From a bacterium (GTDB lineage: Bacteria > Patescibacteriota > Patescibacteriia > JBAXGH01), in NCBI GenBank assembly GCA_037139515.1, contig JBAXGH010000001.1, positions 16,101 to 80,100 of the forward strand: a stretch of DNA of 64,000 bases, read 5' to 3'. The notes below the pieces were generated by a model. The model saw only the letters and a list, made by a program, of their open reading frames with translations. It ran no database searches and had not been told where the DNA came from. A program made the translations under genes and the position numbers. This document shows, piece by piece, positions 1,116 through 59,409 of this stretch. Numbering within the stretch: the first letter of the stretch is position 1; each line of letters starts with the position of its first letter.

Positions 1116-1547
1116 ATGAAGAAGAAAGTTCTGAATAGTCCGGCACTCGCCGATAAGACGATGAAGATGGCTCTATTTTCCGCCGTCATCCTCTTCGCTG
1201 CCGCCACAAGCATACTGACGCTTGGATCCTCAGCTGCGACTGCACCAAAATCAAAAGCTCCGGCCGTAAAGGCAAAACCGGTTCCGGCAGCCTACAAAAA
1301 AGTAGGTTATAAGTTCCCCGGATACGCAACCCCTGGATACGTTGCTCCGGGATATGTAAGCCCAGGCTACGTCGCCCCCGGCTACACAGCTCCGGGTTAC
1401 GTGAATCCAGGCTACACACGCCCCGGATACGTAAACCCAGGATATACGTCGCCTGGTTATGTGAGCCCCGGCTATGTTGCTCCGGGATATGTGAGACCAG
1501 GATACGTAGCCCCGGGGTACAAGAAACCAGAATACATCCGCCAATAA
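1116..1547 (+). CDS. secreted tyrosine-rich pentapeptide-repeat protein: signal peptide, Ala/Lys/Pro linker, then about 17 tandem PGY(V/T)x repeats
   Basis: Direct reading of the ORF track translation. The N-terminal hydrophobic signal region MKMALFSAVILFAAATSIL is followed by GYKFPGYATPGYVAPGYVSPGYVAPGYTAPGYVNPGYT... through to the C-terminus. Confidence 0.6.
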   Translation: MKKKVLNSPALADKTMKMALFSAVILFAAATSILTLGSSAATAPKSKAPAVKAKPVPAAYKKVGYKFPGYATPGYVAPGYVSPGYVAPGYTAPGYVNPGYTRPGYVNPGYTSPGYVSPGYVAPGYVRPGYVAPGYKKPEYIRQ

Positions 1548-7816: not shown

Positions 7817-8875
7817 TTATTTAACGTCCAGCTTCTCCCAAGGAAATTCGTTCCGCCCAAAATGCCCGTAACAAGCCGTTGCTTTATAAATCGGACGGCG
7901 CAAATCAAGCCGCTCCAATATCGAAGCCGGGCGAAAATCAAATTTTTCTTTCACGGTTTCGGTCAAATCTTTACCTTCTCCGGTACGGGCGCGCAAAAAT
8001 ACCGGTTTTTCTTCGCCACGAGAATAAATCGCCTCAATCATAACGGTGCGGCCTGCACCCATCGCAACTAAGTTTTTAGCCGCAAATCGACACATATAAG
8101 CACTCAAACGATCGATTTTTGACGGATCTTTTCCGGAAAGCGAACCGGCGCCCCAGGGCAAAACGCCACCATAAGTATCGGCTGCGAGCTTCTTTCCCGT
8201 CACGCCGGTATCAACTTGAAAGCCGCCCTGAGTAATTTTTCCGGAATAGTTGATATCAACTTTCACGCCGTCCAAATTCCGAAGCATGGACGCAACCACG
8301 CGTTCGAAAAGCTTGGTGCGAACCATCGAATCATCAACCGAGTCATCGTGTTGAACCATGATTTTGATGAACTTCGGATGTTGACCATCAAAGCCAACCA
8401 TGACTTTTCCGTCCGGACGCAGCCAATTGAAAGAAGAATCCGTGAGACGCAAATCATCCAGCCGTTTTGCGATAGCTTGCGCGAGTACCAAAGAAGCCGG
8501 TAAAAACTGCGGCGTCGCATTCGTAGCATAACCGCTCGCGATGCACATATCGTTAGCACCACCACGTTCACTTGTACGAATCGAATCAGGAGAATCGAGA
8601 GCAATGTTCACAAAAGGCTCAATCTCATCAAGATAACCGATTTCGTGATAGACCTGCTTGGCGACGGTTGCGACGTCAAAATCAGCCTTAGAAGTAACTT
8701 CACCGCCAATAACCATCATTCCGTGGGATCCAAAAACCTCTAAAGATACACGCGAATTGGGCTCGCGACGCAAATATTCATCCAAAACCGCATCGGCGAT
8801 TTGATCGCAGATTTTATCGGCTTGACCTTTAGTCACAACTTCCACGAATTGCATACGATCGGAGTGAAAAAACAA
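7817..8875 (-). CDS. metK: S-adenosylmethionine synthetase
   Basis: GQADKICDQIADAVLD (GHPDK-like) and GAGSLSGKDPSKIDRLSAY (GGGAFSGKDPSKVDRSAAY-like) motifs. The true start is probably the internal Met (MQFVEVV, about 8854). Confidence 0.85.
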   Translation of the reverse strand: MFFHSDRMQFVEVVTKGQADKICDQIADAVLDEYLRREPNSRVSLEVFGSHGMMVIGGEVTSKADFDVATVAKQVYHEIGYLDEIEPFVNIALDSPDSIRTSERGGANDMCIASGYATNATPQFLPASLVLAQAIAKRLDDLRLTDSSFNWLRPDGKVMVGFDGQHPKFIKIMVQHDDSVDDSMVRTKLFERVVASMLRNLDGVKVDINYSGKITQGGFQVDTGVTGKKLAADTYGGVLPWGAGSLSGKDPSKIDRLSAYMCRFAAKNLVAMGAGRTVMIEAIYSRGEEKPVFLRARTGEGKDLTETVKEKFDFRPASILERLDLRRPIYKATACYGHFGRNEFPWEKLDVK

Positions 8876-8906
8876 AAAATCAAGAAATCAAAAAATCAAA
8901 CTTCTT
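8876..8906 (-). promoter_or_regulatory. U-rich UUGAUUU-repeat 5' leader of metK with no Shine-Dalgarno sequence
   Basis: The minus-strand reading is UUGAUUUUUUGAUUUCUUGAUUUUUUG directly upstream of the start. The same motif precedes eno and gap. Confidence 0.5.
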
Positions 8907-8984
8907 GAAACCTTACGGGATTACGCAGAAGAAATCAATGCGAGTTTCGTCGCGTTGATTTCTTGCTTTATTGATTTATTGTGT

Positions 8985-9953
8985 TTAGTCGCTGAATTCC
9001 TGCACGAACATCTTTCCGTAGATTCCGGCGTCGATTACCCCAACGCCTAATTTTCCGTAGTCTTTAGATAAAATATTAGCTCTATGGCCCTCGGAATTCA
9101 TCAAACCATCATAGGCATATTCAACATCAGGCGCAAAAGCCAAGTTTTCACCGAGAACGCGATATTCGATTTTCATGTTTCCGGCGCGGGTACCGGGCGT
9201 GCTTCCATCTTTGCCGTTATGCGAGAAAAAACCCTGTTCAACCATAGTTTCACCGTATTTTCTAGCCAAATCACGAAGCTTCGTATCGTAAACAAGAGGC
9301 TTTATTCCGCGCGCAATTCTTTCGCTATTCACATGCTCAAACATCGTCGACTCGCTTTCTTCATCTACCGAATGATTGGTTGAACTAAATCTCAAACTCA
9401 CGCTTTCGTCAGACTTTGGATGAATCGTAAGAAAGGCCAGACTATCTTTAACAGCCGGAGAAAATATATTATTAATGCTGCGATCGATGCGATCCGAGAA
9501 ACGCGCTATCGGAGCACCGAGATTTGATCTCAACACAGCCTGCTTAACCGAACCGGAAAGCGGCAGAGTTACAAGTAGCGGCAGAACCACCATGAAGAGC
9601 ACGAGCGCATCCAAAAGCGCCGGCAGGAACCCAGACCACTTATTTAATTTGTGATTTTTTATGTCATCAGGAATCTTTCGATAAATAATCCGCGCGAAAA
9701 ATGGATAGAGCAAGCCGATACAGATCCAGATTGCAAAAAAAGCTATCGCATTTGCAAACGAGATCGGAATTTCTTTGAACTTCAAAATAATCTTCGCGAC
9801 CTGAACATAACCGACAAAGGCAAGCAGAAGCGAAATCAAAAAACCAACCACTTCGGTCAGAACCAAAAGAAAGCCTCTTCGAATACCATCAATCGAATAT
9901 AAAATAGCGATTATTACGAGAGCCGCATCAGTCCACCACGGTTGAATAACCAT
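8985..9953 (-). CDS. CvpA-family membrane domain fused to a C-terminal CAP/SCP (YkwD-like) domain
   Basis: The N-terminal four-TM region resembles colicin V production protein. The C-terminus has GFFSHNGKDG...EGHRANIL typical of CAP domains. Confidence 0.5.
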   Translation of the reverse strand: MVIQPWWTDAALVIIAILYSIDGIRRGFLLVLTEVVGFLISLLLAFVGYVQVAKIILKFKEIPISFANAIAFFAIWICIGLLYPFFARIIYRKIPDDIKNHKLNKWSGFLPALLDALVLFMVVLPLLVTLPLSGSVKQAVLRSNLGAPIARFSDRIDRSINNIFSPAVKDSLAFLTIHPKSDESVSLRFSSTNHSVDEESESTMFEHVNSERIARGIKPLVYDTKLRDLARKYGETMVEQGFFSHNGKDGSTPGTRAGNMKIEYRVLGENLAFAPDVEYAYDGLMNSEGHRANILSKDYGKLGVGVIDAGIYGKMFVQEFSD

Positions 9954-10035
9954 AAATATAATCTAAATCTACTGCTCGTAGTATAACAAAAACTATTTGT
10001 TTACGGCCGCGCACATACTTATCCACAGCCGACAC

Positions 10036-10082
10036 TTGCGTTCATGTTTGGTTCGTTTATAATACGAACATAACACGAACAT
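10036..10082 (+). promoter_or_regulatory. lexA promoter with a candidate SOS operator: palindrome GTTCG-N9-CGAAC overlapping the TATAAT -10, plus GAAC-N7-GAAC
   Basis: Sequence TTGCGT-16nt-TATAAT with GGTTCGTTTATAATACGAACATAACACGAAC, read directly. It lies 20 nt upstream of the lexA ATG. Confidence 0.5.
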
Positions 10083-10691
10083 ATGATTTCTCAACCGCTC
10101 ACCAAAAAACAAAAAGACATTCTGGACTTTGTGAAAAAGTTCGTCGCTACAGAAGGCTACGCTCCTTCCTACGCGGAAATTGCTGAACACTTCGAACTCT
10201 CATCAAAAGCGTCGGTCGCGCAGTACATCAGCACCCTCCAAGAGAAAGGATATCTCACAAAAGATGGCACTGCTCGTGGAGTCGCCATGACCGAAGAAAC
10301 TCCAAAGCGCACAGCTTTCGAACTCCCCCTTCTCGGCTTAATCGCCGCTGGCACACCAATCGAAGCCCTCGAAGGCCGAGAAACCATGACTATTCCGGAA
10401 GAACTGGTACGCGATCCGTCGCTCTCATATGTTTTGAAAGTCATGGGAACTTCAATGATAGAAGATGGCATTCTCCCGGGTGACTTCGTGGTAGTTGAAA
10501 AAAACGAAAAACCAAATAACGGCGACACCGTTGTCGCGCTGCTCGAAAACACCTACGCGACACTAAAAAGATTCTACAAAGAACCGGGAAGAATCAGGCT
10601 CCAGCCGGCAAACAGCACCATGCAACCGATCTATACAAACGACGTAACGGTCCAAGGTATAGTCCGCGCGATTATCCGAAAGTATACGTAG
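10083..10691 (+). CDS. lexA: LexA repressor (S24 peptidase)
   Basis: N-terminal winged helix-turn-helix. A-G cleavage site in LIAAGTP. Catalytic Ser (GTSM) and a downstream Lys. Confidence 0.9.
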   Translation: MISQPLTKKQKDILDFVKKFVATEGYAPSYAEIAEHFELSSKASVAQYISTLQEKGYLTKDGTARGVAMTEETPKRTAFELPLLGLIAAGTPIEALEGRETMTIPEELVRDPSLSYVLKVMGTSMIEDGILPGDFVVVEKNEKPNNGDTVVALLENTYATLKRFYKEPGRIRLQPANSTMQPIYTNDVTVQGIVRAIIRKYT

Positions 10692-10692
10692 G

Positions 10693-10735
10693 ACATCCCT
10701 AATCCCTAAGCTCTAACCTCTAATCCCTAGCCCCA
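10693..10735. repeat. CTCTAAG/CCCTAAC heptamer-like tandem array
   Basis: CATCCCTAATCCCTAAGCTCTAACCTCTAATCCCTAG. Related arrays occur at 51840 and 58998. Confidence 0.5.
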
Positions 10736-10993
10736 CCCATATGCCATTTCCTTAAACAAAAGGGCTGATTAAATTTACCTCCCCAACACATTTTACCAAT
10801 AAATATATGCTACAATCATCGCTTTTCTCTTCGCTCACAATGAAGATTTTCAATCGTCGAAAATTTCGAATGTCGCGCAGATTCGCTGCCCATAAAAACG
10901 ACAGTCAGAAAAAGAAGCAGACAGCGATGAAACTTGTACGCGCCCCGCTTTCACTAACACCATATCCTTCAGCTTTCTAAATCATAAATCATT

Positions 10994-11254
10994 TTGCCGA
11001 TGTACGATCACATCAATGAACCGGTCGAGACTACGGTTGAATTCAGATCGCCCGTAGTACGTCCCCTTTCAATGCGCTGGAATAATCGAGACTATCAAAT
11101 AGGAAGCGTCAACATGGTACATAAGGCACGTGACGGCGATTCAAGGATTTTCTTCTTCACGGTATCCGAAAAATCTAACGCTAATATATTTAAACTACAA
11201 TTTAATACTGAAACATTAGAATGGCGTCTCCTCGAAATTTATAATGAGAATTAG
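10994..11254 (+). CDS. hypothetical small protein (weak call)
   Basis: ORF of 86 aa with a TTG start and no obvious SD. It lies in a ~1 kb low-coding region between lexA and dinB. Confidence 0.2.
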   Translation: MPMYDHINEPVETTVEFRSPVVRPLSMRWNNRDYQIGSVNMVHKARDGDSRIFFFTVSEKSNANIFKLQFNTETLEWRLLEIYNEN

Positions 11255-31722: not shown

Positions 31723-31775
31723 AGGGGGTAAAAAATCAAGAAAACAATAAATCAAGAAATCAAAAATACACACAA
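31723..31775 (-). promoter_or_regulatory. U-rich UUGAUUU-repeat leader of eno with no SD
   Basis: On the minus strand UUUUUGAUUUCUUGAUUUAUUGUUUUCUUGAUUUUUUACCCCCU precedes the ATG. A second array lies at 31835..31900. Confidence 0.5.
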
Positions 31776-31901
31776 CATGATAACACAAAAGACGCCTAAT
31801 GCTATTAAGCGTCCTCAGTGTTGTGTTTTTTTGATTTATTGATTTCTTGATTTTTTGTCCCGCGTCCTGTCCCTTAGTTTCTTGATTTATTGATTTCTTA
31901 C

Positions 31902-36910: not shown

Positions 36911-36955
36911 AAATTCAATAAATCAAAAAATCAATAAAACAAGAAATCAAAAGAC
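36911..36955 (-). promoter_or_regulatory. gap promoter (-10 TATAAT) and UUGAUUU-repeat leader with no SD
   Basis: The minus strand reads GGTATAATGTCTTTTGATTTCTTGTTTTATTGATTTTTTGATTTATTGAATTT followed by ATG. Confidence 0.5.
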
Positions 36956-37030
36956 ATTATACCATTTTCAAAAACAAAAACCGCGGCAGATACCGTGGTT
37001 TTTGTTTTTGTTCGTGTGAGGTTCGGGTAT

Positions 37031-37712: not shown

Positions 37713-37804
37713 AATGTCGTGTAGCGTGTAACGCGTAACGTGTAACGACAACGTTGAAAGAGTTGACGATGCACGATACAGGTTACACGATACAAGTTTT
37801 AATT

Positions 37805-38614
37805 TTATTTCTTTCCCGCAACTGCCGCGACCGGAGCCATGACCGGAGCCGGAGCTGAAGCCTTCGCAGCAACTGCCGCCGCCGCTGATTTTTCCGCCGC
37901 AAGTTTCGCGGAGGCCTTTATTTTATCACCTTCAACACGACCCTCGCTCGCCGCTTCGGCAATCAGGTTCGCAATAAGCGTGATTGACTTCACTGCATCG
38001 TCGTTTGCCGGGATGCAATACTGAATACCAACCGGGCTCACGTTTGTATCGCACATGGCGACAATCGTGGTATCAGAAACCTTGGCTTCATCAACTGCGG
38101 TCTTTTCATGGCGGGTATCAACCACAAACATGATTTCCGGCTTCTTTTCCAAATCCTGGATACCACCAATCTTGTGTTCGAGCTCTTCGATTTCACGGGC
38201 GAATTCGAGCTGTTCGAACTTGGTGTACTTTTTCAAAGCACCAGTTTCGTGCTGGAACTTCAAATCCTTCAAGCGGCGAAGAACGCGCTTGATCTGGACG
38301 AAATTCGTGAGCGTACCGCCGAGCCAACGGTTCGTGATGTACGGCATCTGGCAGGACTTAGCGGCGGCCTCGACAATCGGAGCGGCCTGGCGCTTGGTAC
38401 CGACAAACAAAACCACACCGCCGCGGGCCACAACGCCTTTCACGTATTCAAGAGTCTTCTCAAGGATGCGCGATGTCTTTTCGACGTCGATGATATGCAC
38501 ACCGTTTCGCGAACCAAAAATATACTGCTTCATCTTTGGGTGCCAACGGCCGGACTGATGGCCGAAGTGAACACCGCTCTCGAGCATCTCAACCAACGAA
38601 GGGAGCTTGGACAT
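37805..38614 (-). CDS. rpsB: 30S ribosomal protein S2
   Basis: [10 protein letters not shown]...[10 protein letters not shown]...[12 protein letters not shown]. Confidence 0.95.
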
Positions 38615-38667
38615 AACTATATATTTGCCCTTTATTTTGGCGTTAAGTGTTGGATTTAGTAGCGATG

Positions 38668-38700
38668 TCGCCCTACGGCCTGTGGCCTATGGCCTAACCC
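38668..38700. repeat. GGCC(R)TAGG octamer-like motif cluster upstream of rpsB
   Basis: CCCTACGGCCTGTGGCCTATGGCCTAACC. The related large palindrome is at 45485..45572 upstream of rplY. Confidence 0.5.
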
Positions 38701-38861
38701 CTATCTACCCCCAACACATCCGCCAACCGCCGCTTTTATCATCTGAACATCTGCGACACCGAAGTATCGAGGGCGATATTCATCAAAAAGCGTGAGAAAT
38801 AAAATGCCTTTTTCAAGGTGGTAGCGAGTGTACATTAAGCCGATAAACCACGCAAATCCAC

Positions 38862-38946
38862 AAATCTACCTGTCCCCTGGTGACAGTCACCTGGGGACAG
38901 GTAGATCTGGCACAGAACGTTGACACAATCACTAAAACGTGATAGA
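38862..38946 (+). promoter_or_regulatory. perfect 14-bp-arm palindrome (ATCTACCTGTCCCC..GGGGACAGGTAGAT) abutting a TTGACA-17-TAGAAAT promoter of the M23 peptidase gene
   Basis: Read directly. The SD AAAGGAGG lies 5 nt before the TTG start at 38977. Confidence 0.55.
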
Positions 38947-38976
38947 AATCCTTCGTAATACGAAAGGAGGACCGTC

Positions 38977-39660
38977 TTGTTCATTCAAACATTGGCTGCT
39001 TTGATGCTCGCGGCGCCTCCGGCTACTCCGGAAACCGCAAAACTCAAACTCGCCCCGGAATGCTTCGCTTGGTCACCACGCGAAAACTGCGATCCGAAAC
39101 ATTCCCTGATCTTCCCAGTCCTTTTCAGAAGCCGGCTCAAAGACTACGAACTGATGCAGTTTGTCGGCAGCCGCTACGGCAAGCGCTGCAACCCGGTCGA
39201 GAGCAAACCCGGCAAGTGCCTCGACGATTTTCACATGGGTCTCGACATCAAAGTTCCACGCGGTACCCCGGTGGCTTCGGTTCGAGGCAATGGTCGCGTA
39301 ATCGAAATCACGCCAATCAATTACTGCCTCCTCATCGAGTACGCCTGGGAAGAGCCGCTCGCGAAGATGACCCAGCGCGCCAAGTATTGCCACCTTGATA
39401 AGATCTATCCGAAGGTTGGCGATCGCATCGAAAAAGCCGGCACCGCGATTGGCGAAGTTGGCGACCGCGGTCACGCAAAGGGCGTTCACCTGCATTTCGA
39501 GCTCAGCGTCCCGCGTGGTCAACCGGTCAGCGAATGGGAAGAAGAAACCTGCGTACCGGATGTGCCGGCGAAAATCCTGGCTATTCCGTATAAAGAAGTT
39601 CGTTTCCCAACTATCGACCCGAGCTGCTACAGCTATCGGGTCGGATATCGCAACCAATAG
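38977..39660 (+). CDS. secreted M23-family (LytM-like) metallopeptidase
   Basis: Signal peptide. HMGLDIKVPRGTPV (HxxxD) and HLHFEL (HxH) motifs. Local GC is about 55% and the antisense ORF 39073..39675 is spurious. Confidence 0.65.
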   Translation: MFIQTLAALMLAAPPATPETAKLKLAPECFAWSPRENCDPKHSLIFPVLFRSRLKDYELMQFVGSRYGKRCNPVESKPGKCLDDFHMGLDIKVPRGTPVASVRGNGRVIEITPINYCLLIEYAWEEPLAKMTQRAKYCHLDKIYPKVGDRIEKAGTAIGEVGDRGHAKGVHLHFELSVPRGQPVSEWEEETCVPDVPAKILAIPYKEVRFPTIDPSCYSYRVGYRNQ

Positions 39661-45467: not shown

Positions 45468-45484
45468 ATGTTATGAGACAAGGG

Positions 45485-45572
45485 CGTAGGCCATAGGCCG
45501 TAGGCCGTAGTTATGTCATTTTAAGACATCCTACGCCCTATGGCCTACGCCCTACGGCCTAATATTTATTGC
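45485..45572. repeat. ~90-nt palindrome built from inverted arrays of the octamer GGCC(A/G)TAG around a central ATGTCATTTTAAGACAT
   Basis: AGGGCGTAGGCCATAGGCCGTAGGCCGTAG ... CTACGCCCTATGGCCTACGCCCTACGGCCT, read directly. It lies upstream of rplY. Confidence 0.6.
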
Positions 45573-46786: not shown

Positions 46787-51153
<4,367 letters not shown>

Positions 51154-51164
51154 TATTTACAAAC

Positions 51165-51187
51165 TACCGCCTTGTGGCGGTTTTTTG
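51165..51187 (+). terminator. rho-independent terminator after gyrB
   Basis: CCGCC-ttgtg-GCGG followed by TTTTTTG. Confidence 0.6.
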
Positions 51188-51190
51188 TTG

Positions 51191-51270
51191 CCGTCATTCC
51201 CGAAATTTGAGCACAAATTGTCGGGAATCCATTTTCTTCAAATAGACTCCCGCCTTCGCGGGAATGACGG
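51191..51270. repeat. family-2(i) repeats: variant copy with a 20-nt palindromic insert, plus an inverted canonical copy GTCATTCCCGCGAAGGCGGGAGTC
   Basis: Other copies at 25491..25518 (inside the RT CDS) and 52842..52874. Confidence 0.65.
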
Positions 51271-51354
51271 AAGGGGCAAAAAAACCGTTTACTTAATCAG
51301 AGACCGGTGCTACATTCCGAAAACAGCTCAGCCCTTTTCGGAAAGGAGCAACCC

Positions 51355-51564
51355 ATGACGTTCCTCGGAGCCTCAAGTGGAAACGGCGAATGTCACTGCA
51401 TCTGCCATAGCAAGCCAGAAGGCGTCATAAAGCACATGCGCGCCTGTTGCGACAAGTGCCCATTTTGCGGAAAGCACATCTCGAATGCGAGACGGCACGA
51501 TCCGGTCTGTGAAAAGAACCCGGCGAACCAAAGAAAGCCAGCGAGCGGAGGAGAAAAGAAATGA
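51355..51564 (+). CDS. small Cys/His-rich protein (CxCxCH...H...CCxxCPxCGKH) with a basic tail
   Basis: SD AAGGAG 7 nt upstream. 69 aa with 7 Cys in a ~30-aa core. Confidence 0.5.
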   Translation: MTFLGASSGNGECHCICHSKPEGVIKHMRACCDKCPFCGKHISNARRHDPVCEKNPANQRKPASGGEKK

Positions 51565-51827
51565 GCGGACTCGAAGATTTTGCTCTCGGACTTTGCGATT
51601 GCGCCTGCCACCGCGGACCAAAAGGCTTCGTGAACCACATCACGGCCTGCTGCTCACGCTGTCCGCATTGCGGCAAGAATGTGAAGTTCAGGCTTTTCTT
51701 CACGAACCAAACTGCAAGCAGAACCCGGCAAACCAGAAACCAGAAGAGCCGCCAAAAGAAGGCGGTTGACGCCCTAGCCCCAGCGTGTTATCCTATGTTT
51801 ATTGGATGCCCGCCGGGGCATTTTTAA
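51561..51827 (+). CDS. paralogous small Cys/His-rich protein, with an apparent +2 frameshift relative to the first copy after CGKN
   Basis: SD GGAGGA. The core CDCACH...H...CCSRCPHCGKN aligns with the first copy. In frame +3 the tail HEPNCKQNPANQKPEEPPKEGG aligns with the first copy's HDPVCEKNPANQRKPASGGEKK. Confidence 0.45.
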   Translation: MSGLEDFALGLCDCACHRGPKGFVNHITACCSRCPHCGKNVKFRLFFTNQTASRTRQTRNQKSRQKKAVDALAPACYPMFIGCPPGHF

Positions 51828-51839
51828 ATAGCGAAAAAT

Positions 51840-51910
51840 AGAGATTAGAGCTTAGGGTTTAGAGATTAGTGACATCCCTAACCTCTAAGCTCTAACCTCT
51901 AAGTTCTACC
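51840..51910. repeat. palindromic array of CTCTAAG/CTCTAAC-like heptamers upstream of secE
   Basis: GAGATTAGAGCTTAGGGTTTAGAGATTAG-tgacatc-CCTAACCTCTAAGCTCTAACCTCTAAG. Confidence 0.55.
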
Positions 51911-51914
51911 CCAT

Positions 51915-52118
51915 ATGACCAAATACGTTGATTCGATTGTGAACTACTTCAAAGACGCCAAGCTCGAACTCATGAAGGTTTCCTGGCCTTCAAAGCATGA
52001 TTTGACCCGCTACAGCGTCATCGTCATCGCCGCTTCGATTATCGTCGCTGCTTCTTTCGGCGCGCTCGATTTCGGACTTGCGAAGGGACTCAACAAACTC
52101 ATCGATTTAGTTTCTTAA
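51915..52118 (+). CDS. secE: preprotein translocase subunit SecE
   Basis: 67 aa with a single C-terminal TM helix. Positioned immediately before nusG. Confidence 0.8.
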   Translation: MTKYVDSIVNYFKDAKLELMKVSWPSKHDLTRYSVIVIAASIIVAASFGALDFGLAKGLNKLIDLVS

Positions 52119-53237: not shown

Positions 53238-53663
53238 ATGGCCAAGAAAATCAAGGCCCTAGTCAAGCTCCAGATTCCGGCAGGCGCAGCTAACCCAGCT
53301 CCTCCAGTCGGTCCGGCTCTCGGTCAGCACGGTGTCAACATTCAGGATTTCTGTCAGAAGTTCAATGCCGCAACCCAGGCCATGCGCGGTGATACGGTTC
53401 CGGTCATCATCACGATCTACGATGACCGCTCGTTCACCTTCATCATGAAGACGCCTCCGGCCGCCGATCTTATCAAAAAGGCCATTGGCCTCGCGAAAGG
53501 ATCCGGCAAGCCGCAGTCGGAAAAGGTTGGCAAAATCACGATGGCTCAGATTCGCGCCATCGCTGAAAAGAAAATGCCAGACATGAATTGCCGAACGGTT
53601 GATGCCGCAGCTCGCTGTATTGCCGGTACCGCAAAGAACATGGGAGTTGAAATAGTTGGGTAG
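53238..53663 (+). CDS. rplK: 50S ribosomal protein L11
   Basis: [35 protein letters not shown]. Confidence 0.95.
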
Positions 53664-53671
53664 GTTCAAGA

Positions 53672-53760
53672 AATCAAAAAATCAAGAAAACGAGAAATCA
53701 AGGAACGCTGCCCGCGCCCTTGATTTTTTGATTTCTTGATTTTTTACCAATACCGGGCGG
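53672..53760. terminator. 19-nt perfect inverted repeat of AATCAAGA units enclosing a GC hairpin; candidate terminator after rplK (no rplA follows)
   Basis: AAGAAATCAAAAAATCAAG ... CAAGGaacgctgcccgcgCCCTTG ... CTTGATTTTTTGATTTCTT. Confidence 0.45.
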
Positions 53761-53764
53761 CTTT

Positions 53765-53822
53765 TCGTATTGACAAAGCTAAGATTCTTTGCTAGTTTCA
53801 GCTGAGTCCGAGAAAGGAGGAC
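53765..53822 (+). promoter_or_regulatory. promoter/operator CGTATTGACAAAGCTAAGATTCTTTGC plus SD for the HExxH gene
   Basis: Shares a CGTATTGACAAA..T.A.A.TCTTTGC motif with 54821..54860 upstream of the amidohydrolase gene. Confidence 0.45.
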
Positions 53823-54764
53823 GTGATGAATTTTCTCAAACACAATCTGATGATTCTCATCCCCCTCACGATATGTGCAGCGCTCTTCGGCGCTCGCGTG
53901 TATCAGAAAGCCGAACAGGAACAGACGCTGGCTCAAAAGGAAAAAGCGCGCGCAGAAGCCGAAGATAAACGCAGCAAGAACGAAGCTCTGAAAGACTGGC
54001 AATATGCCTACACCGATCATACAGCGCTTCCGCAGGGTACTCAGGTAAGCTTCCCCGCGATTCCGCCACTCGTCATTTGTCGACCAGACAATGCTGGCAC
54101 CGAAGGCTGCACAATGGAACTCATGGGCAGATTCTCGTGGCTCCTATCACAGCTCCCAGAACCTTCGCGTGGCGCGCTCACCGCGTCTATCGAGAACAGT
54201 GAGGTTTTTCCCGGACTGCTCTCCGATGCCGACTATGTTGGCGCGGCGTTCATCACCGAAGAGAAAGCCTTGCCGGACGGCGGAATGCTCGTAAAACCGC
54301 GCCTCGGAGTTTCAGGAACTGCACTCATGAAAATTCCGCAGGAAAAAGGAGTCGGCGAAACCCTCGTCGCCATCCTGCACGAATACCGTCACTTCCTTCA
54401 GTGGCACGAGGATTGTCGCAGGCAAGGCAAAATCGTGAGCAATCGCGTGGACCGAAGGCGAATCTTGCCAATGAGCGAAGCAAAATGTGCACAGCACTGG
54501 GAGAATGAGCACGAGGCATACTTTGAAGGCTGCTACCGAGCCTTCAGCTGGGGGCTTCCGAGAAACAATCTCTCCGACCTCTGCGACAAGCTTGATGATC
54601 CGAGCGTAATTGCCTTCAAACGTGCACTCTTCTTCGCGCTTGGAAATACTATCGGACAAGACAAGCAACCCGAATGTCTCCCGGTTTGGGCGCGCCTCGC
54701 CGGACACCCGCACCCGGAAGCGTTTGCCGAATATTGGTCACAGCGCAAAAACAGAAACCTATGA
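53823..54764 (+). CDS. membrane-anchored hypothetical protein with an HExxH motif (putative metallopeptidase-like), GC-rich
   Basis: N-terminal TM segment, coiled-coil, then LVAILHEYRHFLQWHED. Local GC is about 57%. Confidence 0.4.
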   Translation: MMNFLKHNLMILIPLTICAALFGARVYQKAEQEQTLAQKEKARAEAEDKRSKNEALKDWQYAYTDHTALPQGTQVSFPAIPPLVICRPDNAGTEGCTMELMGRFSWLLSQLPEPSRGALTASIENSEVFPGLLSDADYVGAAFITEEKALPDGGMLVKPRLGVSGTALMKIPQEKGVGETLVAILHEYRHFLQWHEDCRRQGKIVSNRVDRRRILPMSEAKCAQHWENEHEAYFEGCYRAFSWGLPRNNLSDLCDKLDDPSVIAFKRALFFALGNTIGQDKQPECLPVWARLAGHPHPEAFAEYWSQRKNRNL

Positions 54765-54870
54765 CCCTAAGCTCCGCTTCAAAAACGGAGCTATTTTATT
54801 ATCCGATACAGCCTCGGGCATCGTATTGACAAAAATCAAAATCTTTGCGATTCTACGCCTTGCAAAACAA

Positions 54871-55719
54871 ATGCCCGTCGGGCAGAAAGCGAGTCGTACC
54901 TTGGAAATCATTGACGCACATGCTCATTTGGGCTCAAAAGCCACAGAACAGACGAGGCCCATCCTTGTGAGCGCTGACGAACTCGTCGCTTCGATGGACA
55001 AGAACGGAATCTCGAAAGCGCTCGTGATCGCACGTGCCGAGAGCGGGACTTCGAATGCCAGGCTCATGAGCGATCTCAAGCCACACCGCACGAGGCTTTT
55101 CGCGATTGCGGAAGTTGGGCCAGGAACAGAGCACGCCGACGCGCAGCTGGATTTCCTTTGGCCACTTCTGGAAGATGGTGTGATCCGTGGATTCAAGCTT
55201 TATCCCGGAAACACCAAGTGCCACTCATTCGACAAACGCCTGCACAAGTACCTTGAATCCCTGGAAGATGCCGGCCGACCGGTTATCGTCCATACCGGGG
55301 ACTGTCTCTGCCGCGTTCCAGGCTCCGACCTGGCTTTCGTGAAAGCTCGTTCAGTCGAGATTCTCGCGACGATGATGCCGGAACTCAAGATCGTGATGGC
55401 GCACGCCGGTGCCCCACACATCGCGGACACCGTCAAAGCCTGCCTCGAGCATCCGAACGTGAGCGTCGATTGCTCCGGGTTCATGCGCACGCGAACCGAC
55501 GACGAAGACGATTCTGAGACCGCCTGCGACACGCGCTGGCTCCTGACATGCTTGATGCAGCTTCTCGAGGCCATCGGACCCGAACGGATTCTCTTCGGTA
55601 CCGACTTCCCAATCGCACGACACATGCCGTACATCAAGGCCATGAACGGAATGCCGATCACGGCGGACAAGCTCGCGCTCATCATGAGCGGAAACGCCAA
55701 GCGGATTTTCGGCCTGTAA
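54871..55719 (+). CDS. amidohydrolase-2 family TIM-barrel metal-dependent hydrolase, GC-rich
   Basis: IIDAHAHLG start motif, HTGD and MAHAG metal-ligand motifs, and a FGTDFP C-terminal motif. Confidence 0.6.
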   Translation: MPVGQKASRTLEIIDAHAHLGSKATEQTRPILVSADELVASMDKNGISKALVIARAESGTSNARLMSDLKPHRTRLFAIAEVGPGTEHADAQLDFLWPLLEDGVIRGFKLYPGNTKCHSFDKRLHKYLESLEDAGRPVIVHTGDCLCRVPGSDLAFVKARSVEILATMMPELKIVMAHAGAPHIADTVKACLEHPNVSVDCSGFMRTRTDDEDDSETACDTRWLLTCLMQLLEAIGPERILFGTDFPIARHMPYIKAMNGMPITADKLALIMSGNAKRIFGL

Positions 55720-58997: not shown

Positions 58998-59072
58998 CGC
59001 AGAGCAAGAGCTTAGGGCTTAAAGCTTAGTGATATCTCTAAGCTCTAATCTCTAAACTCTAAGCTCTAATCC
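58998..59072. repeat. palindromic array of CTCTAAG-like heptamers
   Basis: AGAGCTTAGGGCTTAAAGCTTAG-tgatat-CTCTAAGCTCTAATCTCTAAACTCTAAGCTCTAATCCC. Confidence 0.55.
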
Positions 59073-59076
59073 CATT

Positions 59077-59409
59077 TTACTTCCAATTAATCATCACGAT
59101 CGCGAGCACCGCAAAGCAGTATCCGGCCATATTGAGAGCGCTGATATTCTCGCGAAAGAAGTACCAGCCAAAGAACGAAGAAAAGATAACCGCCGAAACT
59201 CCGAGCGTAATCGTGGCCTTCGAAAGCGGATATCGTGAGAGCACATAGATGAAGAATATGTGTGGCACGATCGGGAGGATATTTGCGGCTAAGAATTGCC
59301 AATCTTGCAACAAAGTCAGGTTGAATGGCTTATCCGCCATGCGTGTTTTTTTGAGAACATCCGAGAGGCTATAAAGCAGCTGTGAAAAGACAATAATGGC
59401 AACGTACAT
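59077..59409 (-). CDS. small four-TM membrane protein (SMR/EamA-like)
   Basis: 110 aa with four hydrophobic helices. Confidence 0.3.
   Translation of the reverse strand: MYVAIIVFSQLLYSLSDVLKKTRMADKPFNLTLLQDWQFLAANILPIVPHIFFIYVLSRYPLSKATITLGVSAVIFSSFFGWYFFRENISALNMAGYCFAVLAIVMINWK

Follow-up and report, generated by a model that had tools for sequence, protein, structure and literature searches.

Why do highly expressed genes of an uncultured, Parcubacteria-like bacterium of the candidate phyla radiation (CPR; GTDB phylum Patescibacteriota) carry tandem repeats, and no Shine-Dalgarno (SD) sequence, directly before their start codons? In the 64,000-nt stretch analysed here (the window; contig JBAXGH010000001.1 of assembly GCA_037139515.1, positions 16,101 to 80,100 of the forward strand), the minus-strand genes metK, eno and gap are each preceded by an array of UUGAUUUY octamers, which a first-pass annotation had read as a U-rich translational enhancer or a binding site for a global RNA-binding regulator. 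We tentatively favour a different account: 7-8-nt repeats born of slippage were retained near highly expressed genes, and the arrays that stand in the U-rich sense act as passive landing pads for SD-independent initiation.

The repeats themselves are not in doubt. Tandem Repeats Finder reported period-8 arrays at exactly four octamer loci (metK, eno, gap and rplK), confirming the UUGAUUUY repeats with an 8-nt period 5' of the first three genes as well as the inverted octamer array described after rplK, where an AAATCAA/TTGATTT pair lies 3' of the stop codon at 53663. TTGATTT occurs 74 times in the window versus 26 ± 4.7 times in shuffles, and 15 in-phase dimers (TTGWTTTNTTGWTTT) were observed versus 0.015 expected. 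The repeat units are imperfect (79-88% matches); among the octamers TTG and TTT are near-invariant, and position 8 is variable (alignment A2). All 16 repeat arrays of all unit families, at 9 loci, are intergenic and thus fall within 11.2% of the window.

The arrays also lie outside the coding sequences. The identity of metK, eno, gap and rplK is supported by Pfam, and the domain alignments fix their start codons; database gene calls agree with the starts of metK (345 aa), gap, tsf and secE, and the eno start is backed by Pfam and by 419-aa orthologues. We considered whether the metK, eno and gap arrays could be coding sequence and rejected this, because Pfam domain alignments and orthologue lengths put the starts downstream of the arrays. 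An exact-protein look-up found neither the 419-aa eno sequence nor the M50 protease sequence on record, probably because the gene caller chose other start codons; an in-frame TTG at 31788 would extend the eno open reading frame (ORF) through the array. The contig of another assembly (L207) ends at window position 31757, inside the eno leader array. Arrays of this kind seem to interrupt assemblies and to cause wrong calls of start codons.

The orientation of the octamer is far from even. TTGATTT reaches 3.85 per kb in the leader sense and 0 in the leader antisense, compared with 1.09 per kb per strand in the remaining intergenic sequence and 0.40-0.47 per kb in coding DNA, and all three solitary octamer arrays (metK, eno, gap) stand in the U-rich sense. 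Equal frequency outside leaders, which the first-pass annotation had named as the result that would tell against a leader role, was therefore found only in part: the leader sense is enriched, yet 18 of the 28 intergenic TTGATTT copies lie outside the 60-nt leader windows, in hairpin arms or 3' untranslated regions (3'UTRs). Two U-sense and four A-sense arrays are likewise hairpin arms or 3'UTR sequences, and at the metK and eno loci further inverted AAATCAA arrays occupy the 3'UTR of the gene that lies upstream.

Promoter predictions suggest that the leader arrays are transcribed almost from their first nucleotide. A standard −35/−10 consensus scan found no promoter 5' of metK, eno or gap; our own scan for the extended −10 motif placed such elements before eno and gap, ending 54 nt and 45 nt before the ATG, respectively, and the same extended −10 type is present 5' of the gap and eno orthologues in four related genomes (L002, L003, L004 and L209). 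For metK, a weak candidate picked out by eye, whose −35-like hexamer coincides with one of the repeat units in the 3' arm of the hairpin upstream of metK, would put the start at ~8902, the beginning of the array, with a predicted 5'UTR from ~8902 to 8855. Because the predicted starts fall on the first repeat unit, the sense arrays probably make up the whole 38-48-nt 5'UTRs, which would be the longest leaders in the window. In the mRNA sense these leaders read AAGUUUGAUUUUUUGAUUUCUUGAUUUUUUGUUUUUUCACUCCGAUCGU before AUG 8854 (metK; the array ends ~14 nt before the ATG), GUAUUUUUGAUUUCUUGAUUUAUUGUUUUCUUGAUUUUUUACCCCCU before AUG 31722 (eno; the array ends 10 nt before the ATG) and UUGAUUUCUUGUUUUAUUGAUUUUUUGAUUUAUUGAAUUU before AUG 36910 (gap). 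They are the three most U-rich leaders, with 60-68% U in positions −40 to −1 versus a mean of 32%. Folding gave minimum free energies (MFE) of −7.7 kcal/mol for metK (8825-8905; z = +2.17), −4.4 kcal/mol for gap (z = +2.05) and −5.1 kcal/mol for eno (z = +0.06); for gap and metK, nearly all shuffled sequences give more stable folds, and all three octamer leaders are predicted to be single-stranded.

These leaders belong to an organism in which SD pairing is marginal. The metK, eno and gap leaders contain no run of at least 4 nt matching AGGAGG at SD distance (−20 to −4), which bears out the reported absence of a GGAGG SD sequence before these genes. The accompanying statement that many other genes have a canonical SD did not survive a census of the 47 curated start codons in the window: SD-like 4-mers at −20 to −4 precede 7 starts versus 4.5 by chance (p = 0.17), and SD-like 5-mers precede 4 versus 0.9 by chance (p = 0.014). 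As the SD is hardly used in the window, a contrast with canonical-SD genes is false, and the lack of an SD before metK, eno and gap is the norm here. Extended −10 motifs (TGnTAnnnT) lie 8-54 nt before 13 of 46 starts; with promoter elements so near the start codon, several mRNAs should be nearly leaderless. In 8 of the 47 genes CAT stands immediately 5' of the start codon, producing a recurring CATATG context (e.g. at 10083, 17403, 19489, 34474, 45467 and 51915) that could reflect a Kozak-like preference or the transcription start of near-leaderless mRNAs.

This picture has a precedent among relatives. The gap protein has its best named relatives in Parcubacteria, Uhrbacteria and other Patescibacteria, and the anti-SD motif is present in only 48% of Parcubacteria, in which the lineages without an anti-SD overlap the group without uL1 (Tsurumaki et al. 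2022, PMC9297842). In the window rplA was not found after rplK, the next genes encoding a 312-aa protein without a Pfam match and an amidohydrolase (53663-55719). Both this and the near-absence of SD use resemble the subgroup without anti-SD and uL1; since the 3' end of the 16S rRNA lies outside the window, we infer membership from these two features. The published work deals with rRNA and ribosomal-protein features and not with leaders (PMC9297842).

In the mechanism we propose, the TTGATTTY arrays would be lineage-specific, fast-evolving repeats that arose, most probably, by replication slippage or local copying and that persist solely in non-coding DNA near strongly expressed housekeeping genes. 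With an SD barely in use and many mRNAs having very short leaders, a U-rich, G-poor, SD-free and unstructured leader would keep the start codon accessible, and its array would offer the 30S subunit a single-stranded landing or standby site, perhaps with the assistance of low-specificity OB-fold proteins (bS1 or a Csp). In the complementary orientation, the same octamer unit would provide the A-rich arm of a terminator-type hairpin. We infer the transcription starts, the translational effect and the slippage origin of the arrays from sequence and folding predictions. The idea of a U-rich translational enhancer is partly and indirectly supported by these data, in that the leaders are predicted to be transcribed, are 60-68% U and unstructured and precede highly expressed genes; what does not hold is the contrast with SD-bearing genes from which it was drawn. 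In E. coli, U- and AU-rich leader enhancers are reportedly bound by S1 (Boni and colleagues; Komarova and colleagues; Zhang and Deutscher); such single-stranded U-rich tracts just 5' of the start codon can sustain initiation where the SD is weak or absent. The window leaders resemble them in their U-rich tracts, predicted to be single-stranded, next to the start codon, but the E. coli enhancers have no tandem-repeat structure and are served by a six-domain S1 protein. No rpsA gene was found in the window.

Comparison with close relatives indicates that the repeats come and go. In L209 (gap 87% identical) the extended −10 element TGaTACAAT is followed after 8 nt by the gap ATG, and in L002 (82% identical) TGtTAAAAT is followed after 9 nt, with no array before gap in either genome. 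L003 (78%) and L004 (77%) have neither arrays nor an SD before gap and eno; the leaders of the former are pyrimidine-rich, and the gap leader of the latter is not U-rich. The octamer does occur in L002, where an AAATCAA/TTGATTT hairpin occupies the rpsB-tsf spacer in which the window has CGTTACA arrays, and where TTGATTT units also stand before the next gene. Because their positions differ among close relatives, the arrays are probably evolutionarily recent and mobile, and, judging from these sequences, it is the lack of an SD in the leader that is conserved rather than the repeat. Among the matches listed, gap relatives from metagenomes are at most 62% identical, too distant to judge leader conservation. 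A different palindromic repeat, GATCTCTCGCTTCGCTCGAGATGACA ... TGTCATCTCGAAGGAGCG..GAGAGATC, is found 5' of gap and of the following gene in L002 (~9830-10000 and 11060-11200) and in L209 (~170-215), at positions where the window has an octamer array or nothing.

These comparisons bear on the possibility of a specific regulon, in which UUGAUUUY units would be multivalent sites for one RNA-binding protein (Csp-like, or with KH or S1 domains) that co-regulates metK, eno and gap or recruits ribosomes to them. The near-invariance of TTG and TTT would fit such sites, as would the retention of the same octamer in L002, albeit at other genes. In Csp-oligonucleotide complexes, the footprint of a single OB-fold domain is compatible with 7-8 nt, i.e. 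with the repeat period. However, none of the genes in the window encodes a candidate protein, the targets differ between relatives, half of the arrays are antisense or lie in terminator arms, and three unrelated units occupy equivalent leaders, so that several regulators would be required.

Repeats in other phyla also speak against a single factor. Pattern TTGATTTNTTGATTTNTTGATTT was scanned in one genome per species, giving at least 120 loci (867 kb). Among the matches listed, the octamer loci are mostly from Bacteroidota, the others coming from Poribacteria, Caldilineaceae, Thermoanaerobaculia and Proteobacteria, with 4 in CPR genomes. At the loci listed (at least 120) the octamer arrays are accompanied by further arrays of 7-8-nt units; the array periods there are 7 in 107 cases and 8 in 185, versus 6 in 7 and 9 in 20. 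Where, among the loci listed, an ATG-initiated ORF of at least 80 aa begins within 40 nt of an array, the array stands in the AAAUCAA sense 24 times and in the UUGAUUU sense 5 times, the opposite of the window. Arrays of (AAATCAAN)n abut start codons in the A-rich sense in Bacteroidota and some Proteobacteria (L011, L021, L022, L035, L071, L074, L081, L082, L087, L099, L112, L120 and others). Repeat-built leaders thus seem to be widespread outside the CPR, array orientation seems to follow what the leaders of each lineage tolerate or prefer, and the prevalence of the A-rich sense at starts elsewhere makes a single conserved UUGAUUU-recognising factor unlikely. With positions unconserved, the unit equally found antisense, unrelated units in the same niche and the A-rich sense elsewhere, the evidence argues against the earlier proposal of a site for one sequence-specific global regulator; the arrays probably do not serve a dedicated regulator as its operator, and we consider the specific regulon very unlikely.

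The TTGATTTY octamer itself is not discussed in the literature we searched. Its closest analogue is the TAACTGA repeat of marine Beggiatoaceae, a heptamer that also occurs in some Cyanobacteria and Bacteroidetes (MacGregor 2015, PMC4679880). TAACTGA repeats are nearly all intergenic and mostly forward, end a few nucleotides from the start codon and overlap the expected ribosome-binding site; an SD is found in only ~10% of the spacers, and ribosomal-protein genes are among the targets (PMC4679880). Binding by S1, Csp or CsrA has been proposed for them, as a proposal only (MacGregor 2015, PMC4679880), and by analogy this would lend the regulon some support. The window arrays share the intergenic location, the sense orientation near start codons and the lack of an SD. 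They differ in unit (TTGATTTY) and period (8), in their CPR host, in the coexistence of several unit families, and in that complementary arrays often pair into hairpins, whereas one inverted repeat is reported for the Beggiatoaceae genome BOGUAY. Because unit and period differ, we regard the window arrays as analogous to the TAACTGA family and not as members of it.

Pairing of complementary arrays raises a second alternative, in which a hairpin is the functional element: the inverted pair would be a bidirectional terminator or insulator, or an mRNA-stabilising 5' stem-loop, and the solitary U-sense arrays would be half-elements or distal arms (Table 1). The folds are strong. The rplK pair folds with −35.4 kcal/mol on the plus strand (z = −5.0) and −36.5 kcal/mol on the minus strand (z about −5), and the rplY, secE and pheT hairpins with −57.6 (z = −7.45), −30.6 (z = −5.3) and −39.4 kcal/mol (z = −4.5), respectively. 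Terminator-like calls were obtained at 8929-8964, 31816-31788 and 53719-53703, those at the metK and rplK loci overlapping repeat units; the hairpin upstream of metK has an MFE of −18.7 kcal/mol (z = −3.2). The eno leader array and the AAATCAA array 5' of the terminator at this locus are complementary, and region 31760-31901 shows partial pairing (−28.7 kcal/mol, z = −2.9). Consensus promoters lie upstream of rplY (TTGACC-17-TAGAAT, 45615-45587) and secE (51766-51794), which places these two hairpins inside 5'UTRs, and inverted heptamer arrays have been described in Xanthomonas (PMC4692102). On the other hand, no complementary partner exists for the gap array, upstream of which stands a separate terminator of conventional type (this tsf-side hairpin overlaps a period-6 GTTTTT array at 36998-37012 and was not flagged by a consensus terminator scan); from the predicted starts, the eno and metK leaders lose the partner arm and are unstructured; and the stems are AU-rich, the metK hairpin lacking a clear U tail on the gene strand. 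The features of an intrinsic bidirectional terminator are found in the paired arrays only, not in the solitary leader arrays. Thus, on folding evidence, complementary AAATCAA arrays probably form the A-rich arms of terminator-type hairpins, whereas a hairpin as the basis of all the arrays is unlikely.

Table 1. Repeat arrays, candidate promoters and hairpins in the window
Feature	Position	Strand	Description
metK 5' leader array	8869..8903	-	UUGAUUUU UUGAUUUC UUGAUUUU UUGUUUUU; Tandem Repeats Finder
metK weak promoter-like site (putative)	8910..8938	-	TTGATT (8938-8933), 17-nt spacer, TAAGGT (8915-8910); by eye, inferred only
Terminator-type hairpin, cvpA-CAP gene / metK	8929..8964	.	Arms AAGAAATCAA, TTGATTTCTT; 15 pairs, T-rich tail on + strand
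AAAUCAA-sense array, 3'UTR of cvpA-CAP gene	8955..8981	-	TTGATTTA on + strand
eno 5' leader array	31731..31769	-	UUGAUUUC UUGAUUUA UUGUUUUC UUGAUUUU, then UUACCCCCU, AUG 31722
eno extended −10 promoter TGtTATCAT (predicted)	31777..31785	-	Scan for TGNTANNNT; predicted start ~31769, first unit
Intrinsic-terminator-like hairpin of SIMPL-family gene	31788..31816	-	13 pairs, then TTTTGTGTT
Two AAAUCAA-sense arrays, SIMPL gene 3'UTR	31827-31857 + 31878-31896	-	Proximal array complementary to eno leader array
gap 5' leader array	36911..36950	-	UUGAUUUC UUGUUUUA UUGAUUUU UUGAUUUA UUGAAUUU; abuts AUG 36910
gap extended −10 promoter TGgTATAAT (predicted)	36956..36964	-	Predicted start ~36949, first unit
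Terminator-like hairpin after tsf	36969..37010	-	Complementary A and U tracts CAAAAACAAAAACC...GGTTTTTGTTTTTG
rpsB-tsf spacer CGUUACA heptamer array	37713..37790	-	Abuts tsf AUG 37712; imperfect inverted partner upstream
UAGGCCR heptamer array	38672..38696	-	~60 nt 5' of rpsB start (38614)
rplY (L25) 5'UTR hairpin	45481..45561	-	UAGGCCG + CCUACGG heptamer arrays
secE 5'UTR hairpin	51839..51908	+	UAGAGMU + CUCUAAG heptamer arrays; ends 6 nt before AUG 51915
Inverted AAATCAA/TTGATTT pair after rplK stop (53663)	53666..53745 (arms 53666-53702, 53720-53745)	+	Long hairpin on either strand
pheT upstream hairpin	58998..59069	-	UAGAGMU/CUAAGCU family; alignment A1
Solitary CUCUAAG-family arm after lexA	10692..10743	+	Near-identical to 3' arm of secE hairpin

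The octamer is one of at least four tandem-repeat families with a 7-8-nt unit in the window. Three 7-nt families (CGTTACA, CCTACGG and CTCTAAG) show an octamer-like architecture before tsf, rpsB, rplY, secE and pheT, the rpsB-tsf spacer folding with −29.8 kcal/mol (z = −2.9). Leader arrays precede 8 of 12 housekeeping genes versus none of 34 others (p = 2e-6, with categories chosen post hoc), and all 8 genes so preceded serve translation, glycolysis or S-adenosylmethionine (SAM) synthesis. The lexA-side array (10692-10743) and the secE arm (51872-51917) are near-identical, including their end CCCCA..CATATG (alignment A1), and since only a 4-codon ORF follows the former, it is best viewed as a dispersed copy without a gene. 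The resemblance of this pair suggests that whole array segments were copied, and that in-place slippage was not the only process at work. A GACAT pentamer stands at the 5' junction of the mRNA-sense heptamer arrays of all three heptamer families (10692, 37720, ~38665, ~45535 and 51872, at lexA, tsf, rpsB, rplY and secE) and is not present at the octamer arrays.

Such a variety of units invites the explanation that the repeats have no function of their own: as neutral or selfish by-products of slippage or local copying, they would accumulate wherever insertion is harmless, i.e. between a promoter and an SD-free start codon or in the A and U tracts of terminators. The generic features of a 7-8-nt simple sequence repeat (SSR) excess are all found here, namely unrelated unit families, the 7-8-nt period, intergenic location and variability among relatives. 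Rapid gain and loss among close relatives, different units in orthologous spacers, the many unrelated units with a 7-8-nt period in the window and in other phyla, and the lexA-side copy with its 4-codon ORF all agree with this explanation, and polymerase slippage has been hypothesised for the over-representation of heptamers in bacteria (Rehm et al., PMC4692102). The same study describes inverted heptamer arrays, including in Xanthomonas, and extensive variation between close relatives. The heptameric SSR and short tandemly repeated repetitive (STRR) sequences of Calothrix/Nostoc and the GGGAATC repeats of Xanthomonas (PMC4692102 and references therein) share with the window arrays the ~7-nt period, the intergenic bias, the variation among relatives and some inverted pairs; they are, however, G-rich and form G-quadruplexes, while the window octamers are U-rich and G-poor, and whole housekeeping 5'UTRs made of repeats are not reported there. 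Harmless accumulation would leave unexplained why 8 of 8 leader arrays precede housekeeping genes when 31 other genes of the window have upstream spacers of at least 60 nt without leader arrays, why the solitary octamer arrays are in the U-rich sense in three of three cases with a leader-antisense density of 0, and why arrays fill the interval between predicted transcription start and start codon. In addition, the imperfection of the units argues that the arrays are not fresh expansions. We therefore regard purely neutral repeats as possible but rather unlikely.

At the opposite extreme, the arrays could be an exchangeable, actively maintained leader cassette of SD-less CPR lineages: every repeat would engage a single OB-fold domain in a Csp-type protein or a short bS1, the array as a multivalent site would bring ribosomes to the most highly expressed mRNAs or protect them, and the inverted partner would silence read-through, so that period and position are selected and the unit is free. 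The different units in the rpsB-tsf spacer of two relatives would be explained if the unit sequence were free to change in this way. Such a cassette is nonetheless quite unlikely in our view.

Several observations weigh against slippage-born repeats retained as landing pads, the reading we favour. The promoters are consensus matches, and that of metK is a weak one chosen by eye. No copy-number polymorphism was found among four assemblies, so ongoing slippage was not observed; these assemblies (L001 and L206-L208) are 100% or 99.995% identical to the window, do not differ from it within the arrays, and are perhaps not independent. The nearest relatives have gap mRNAs predicted to be near-leaderless, which makes the gap array dispensable. 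Landing pads cannot be the general role of all arrays, because the remaining families lack the U-richness and fold into 5'UTR hairpins of high stability. Since only 3-4 S1 domains are present in most bS1 proteins of the CPR (PMC9297842), an enhancer of the E. coli S1 type is uncertain. Finally, the association with housekeeping genes was noticed post hoc, in a 64-kb sample.

Other explanations were considered and rejected. Phased A-tract curvature or UP elements do not apply, as repeats spaced 8 bp apart do not keep in phase with the turns of the DNA helix, and the −10 element stands upstream of the arrays. Repeated −35 hexamers (TTGATT) lack a −10 element at the right spacing inside the leaders, the sole exception being the unit that possibly serves as the metK −35. 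A contingency locus with phase variation is contradicted by the imperfect units, the housekeeping nature of the genes and the complete identity of four assemblies (possibly one population) across the arrays. Rfam covariance models gave no match in the window at gathering scores or at E <= 0.1, leaving SAM riboswitch, ribosomal-protein leader and T-box readings unsupported, and ARAGORN found no tRNA.

Several neighbouring features of the window are recorded here in their own right. The gyrB-secE gap (51153-51915, ~760 nt) has no called gene, tRNA or Rfam match; it contains a strong promoter, TTGACG-17-TGtTATCCT (51766-51794), with a terminator-like hairpin, GGATGCCCGCCGGGGCATTTTT, downstream of it, and this stretch could be an undescribed small RNA or attenuator. 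gyrB (47827-51153, +) carries an intein (Pfam Intein_splicing, residues 445-867) before the Toprim domain. Upstream of rpsB (38614-38977, 362 nt) there is a perfect palindrome, CTACCTGTCCCCAGGTGAC/GTCACCAGGGGACAGGTAG, at 38872-38900, and this region has the motif GATGA(A/T)AGCGGCGGTTGG in common with L002; it may be a leader structure outside Rfam. Direct repeats ATAACACGAAC/ACGAACAT with GAAC motifs at 10059-10083, directly 5' of the lexA start, may be a LexA operator. A 110-aa ORF between pheS and pheT (59077-59409, -) resembles an EamA transporter fragment, and a 30-nt coding repeat of Pro-Gly-Tyr-Val type lies at 1376-1516 (+) in an ORF (1116-1547) without a Pfam match.

How ribosomes find start codons in SD-poor bacteria is still an open question, and CPR bacteria are not yet genetically tractable. 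The loci described here provide a natural experiment, in which orthologous housekeeping genes are predicted to be near-leaderless in one genome and to have ~40-nt leaders made entirely of repeats in a close relative. If the arrays have no effect on expression, they would be a clear case of slippage repeats tolerated in SD-free leaders and a practical cause of start miscalls and contig breaks. If they do affect expression, leader function would be a matter of repeat period, base composition and absence of structure and not of a particular motif, and the long-noted excess of heptamers and octamers in bacteria would be linked to translation.

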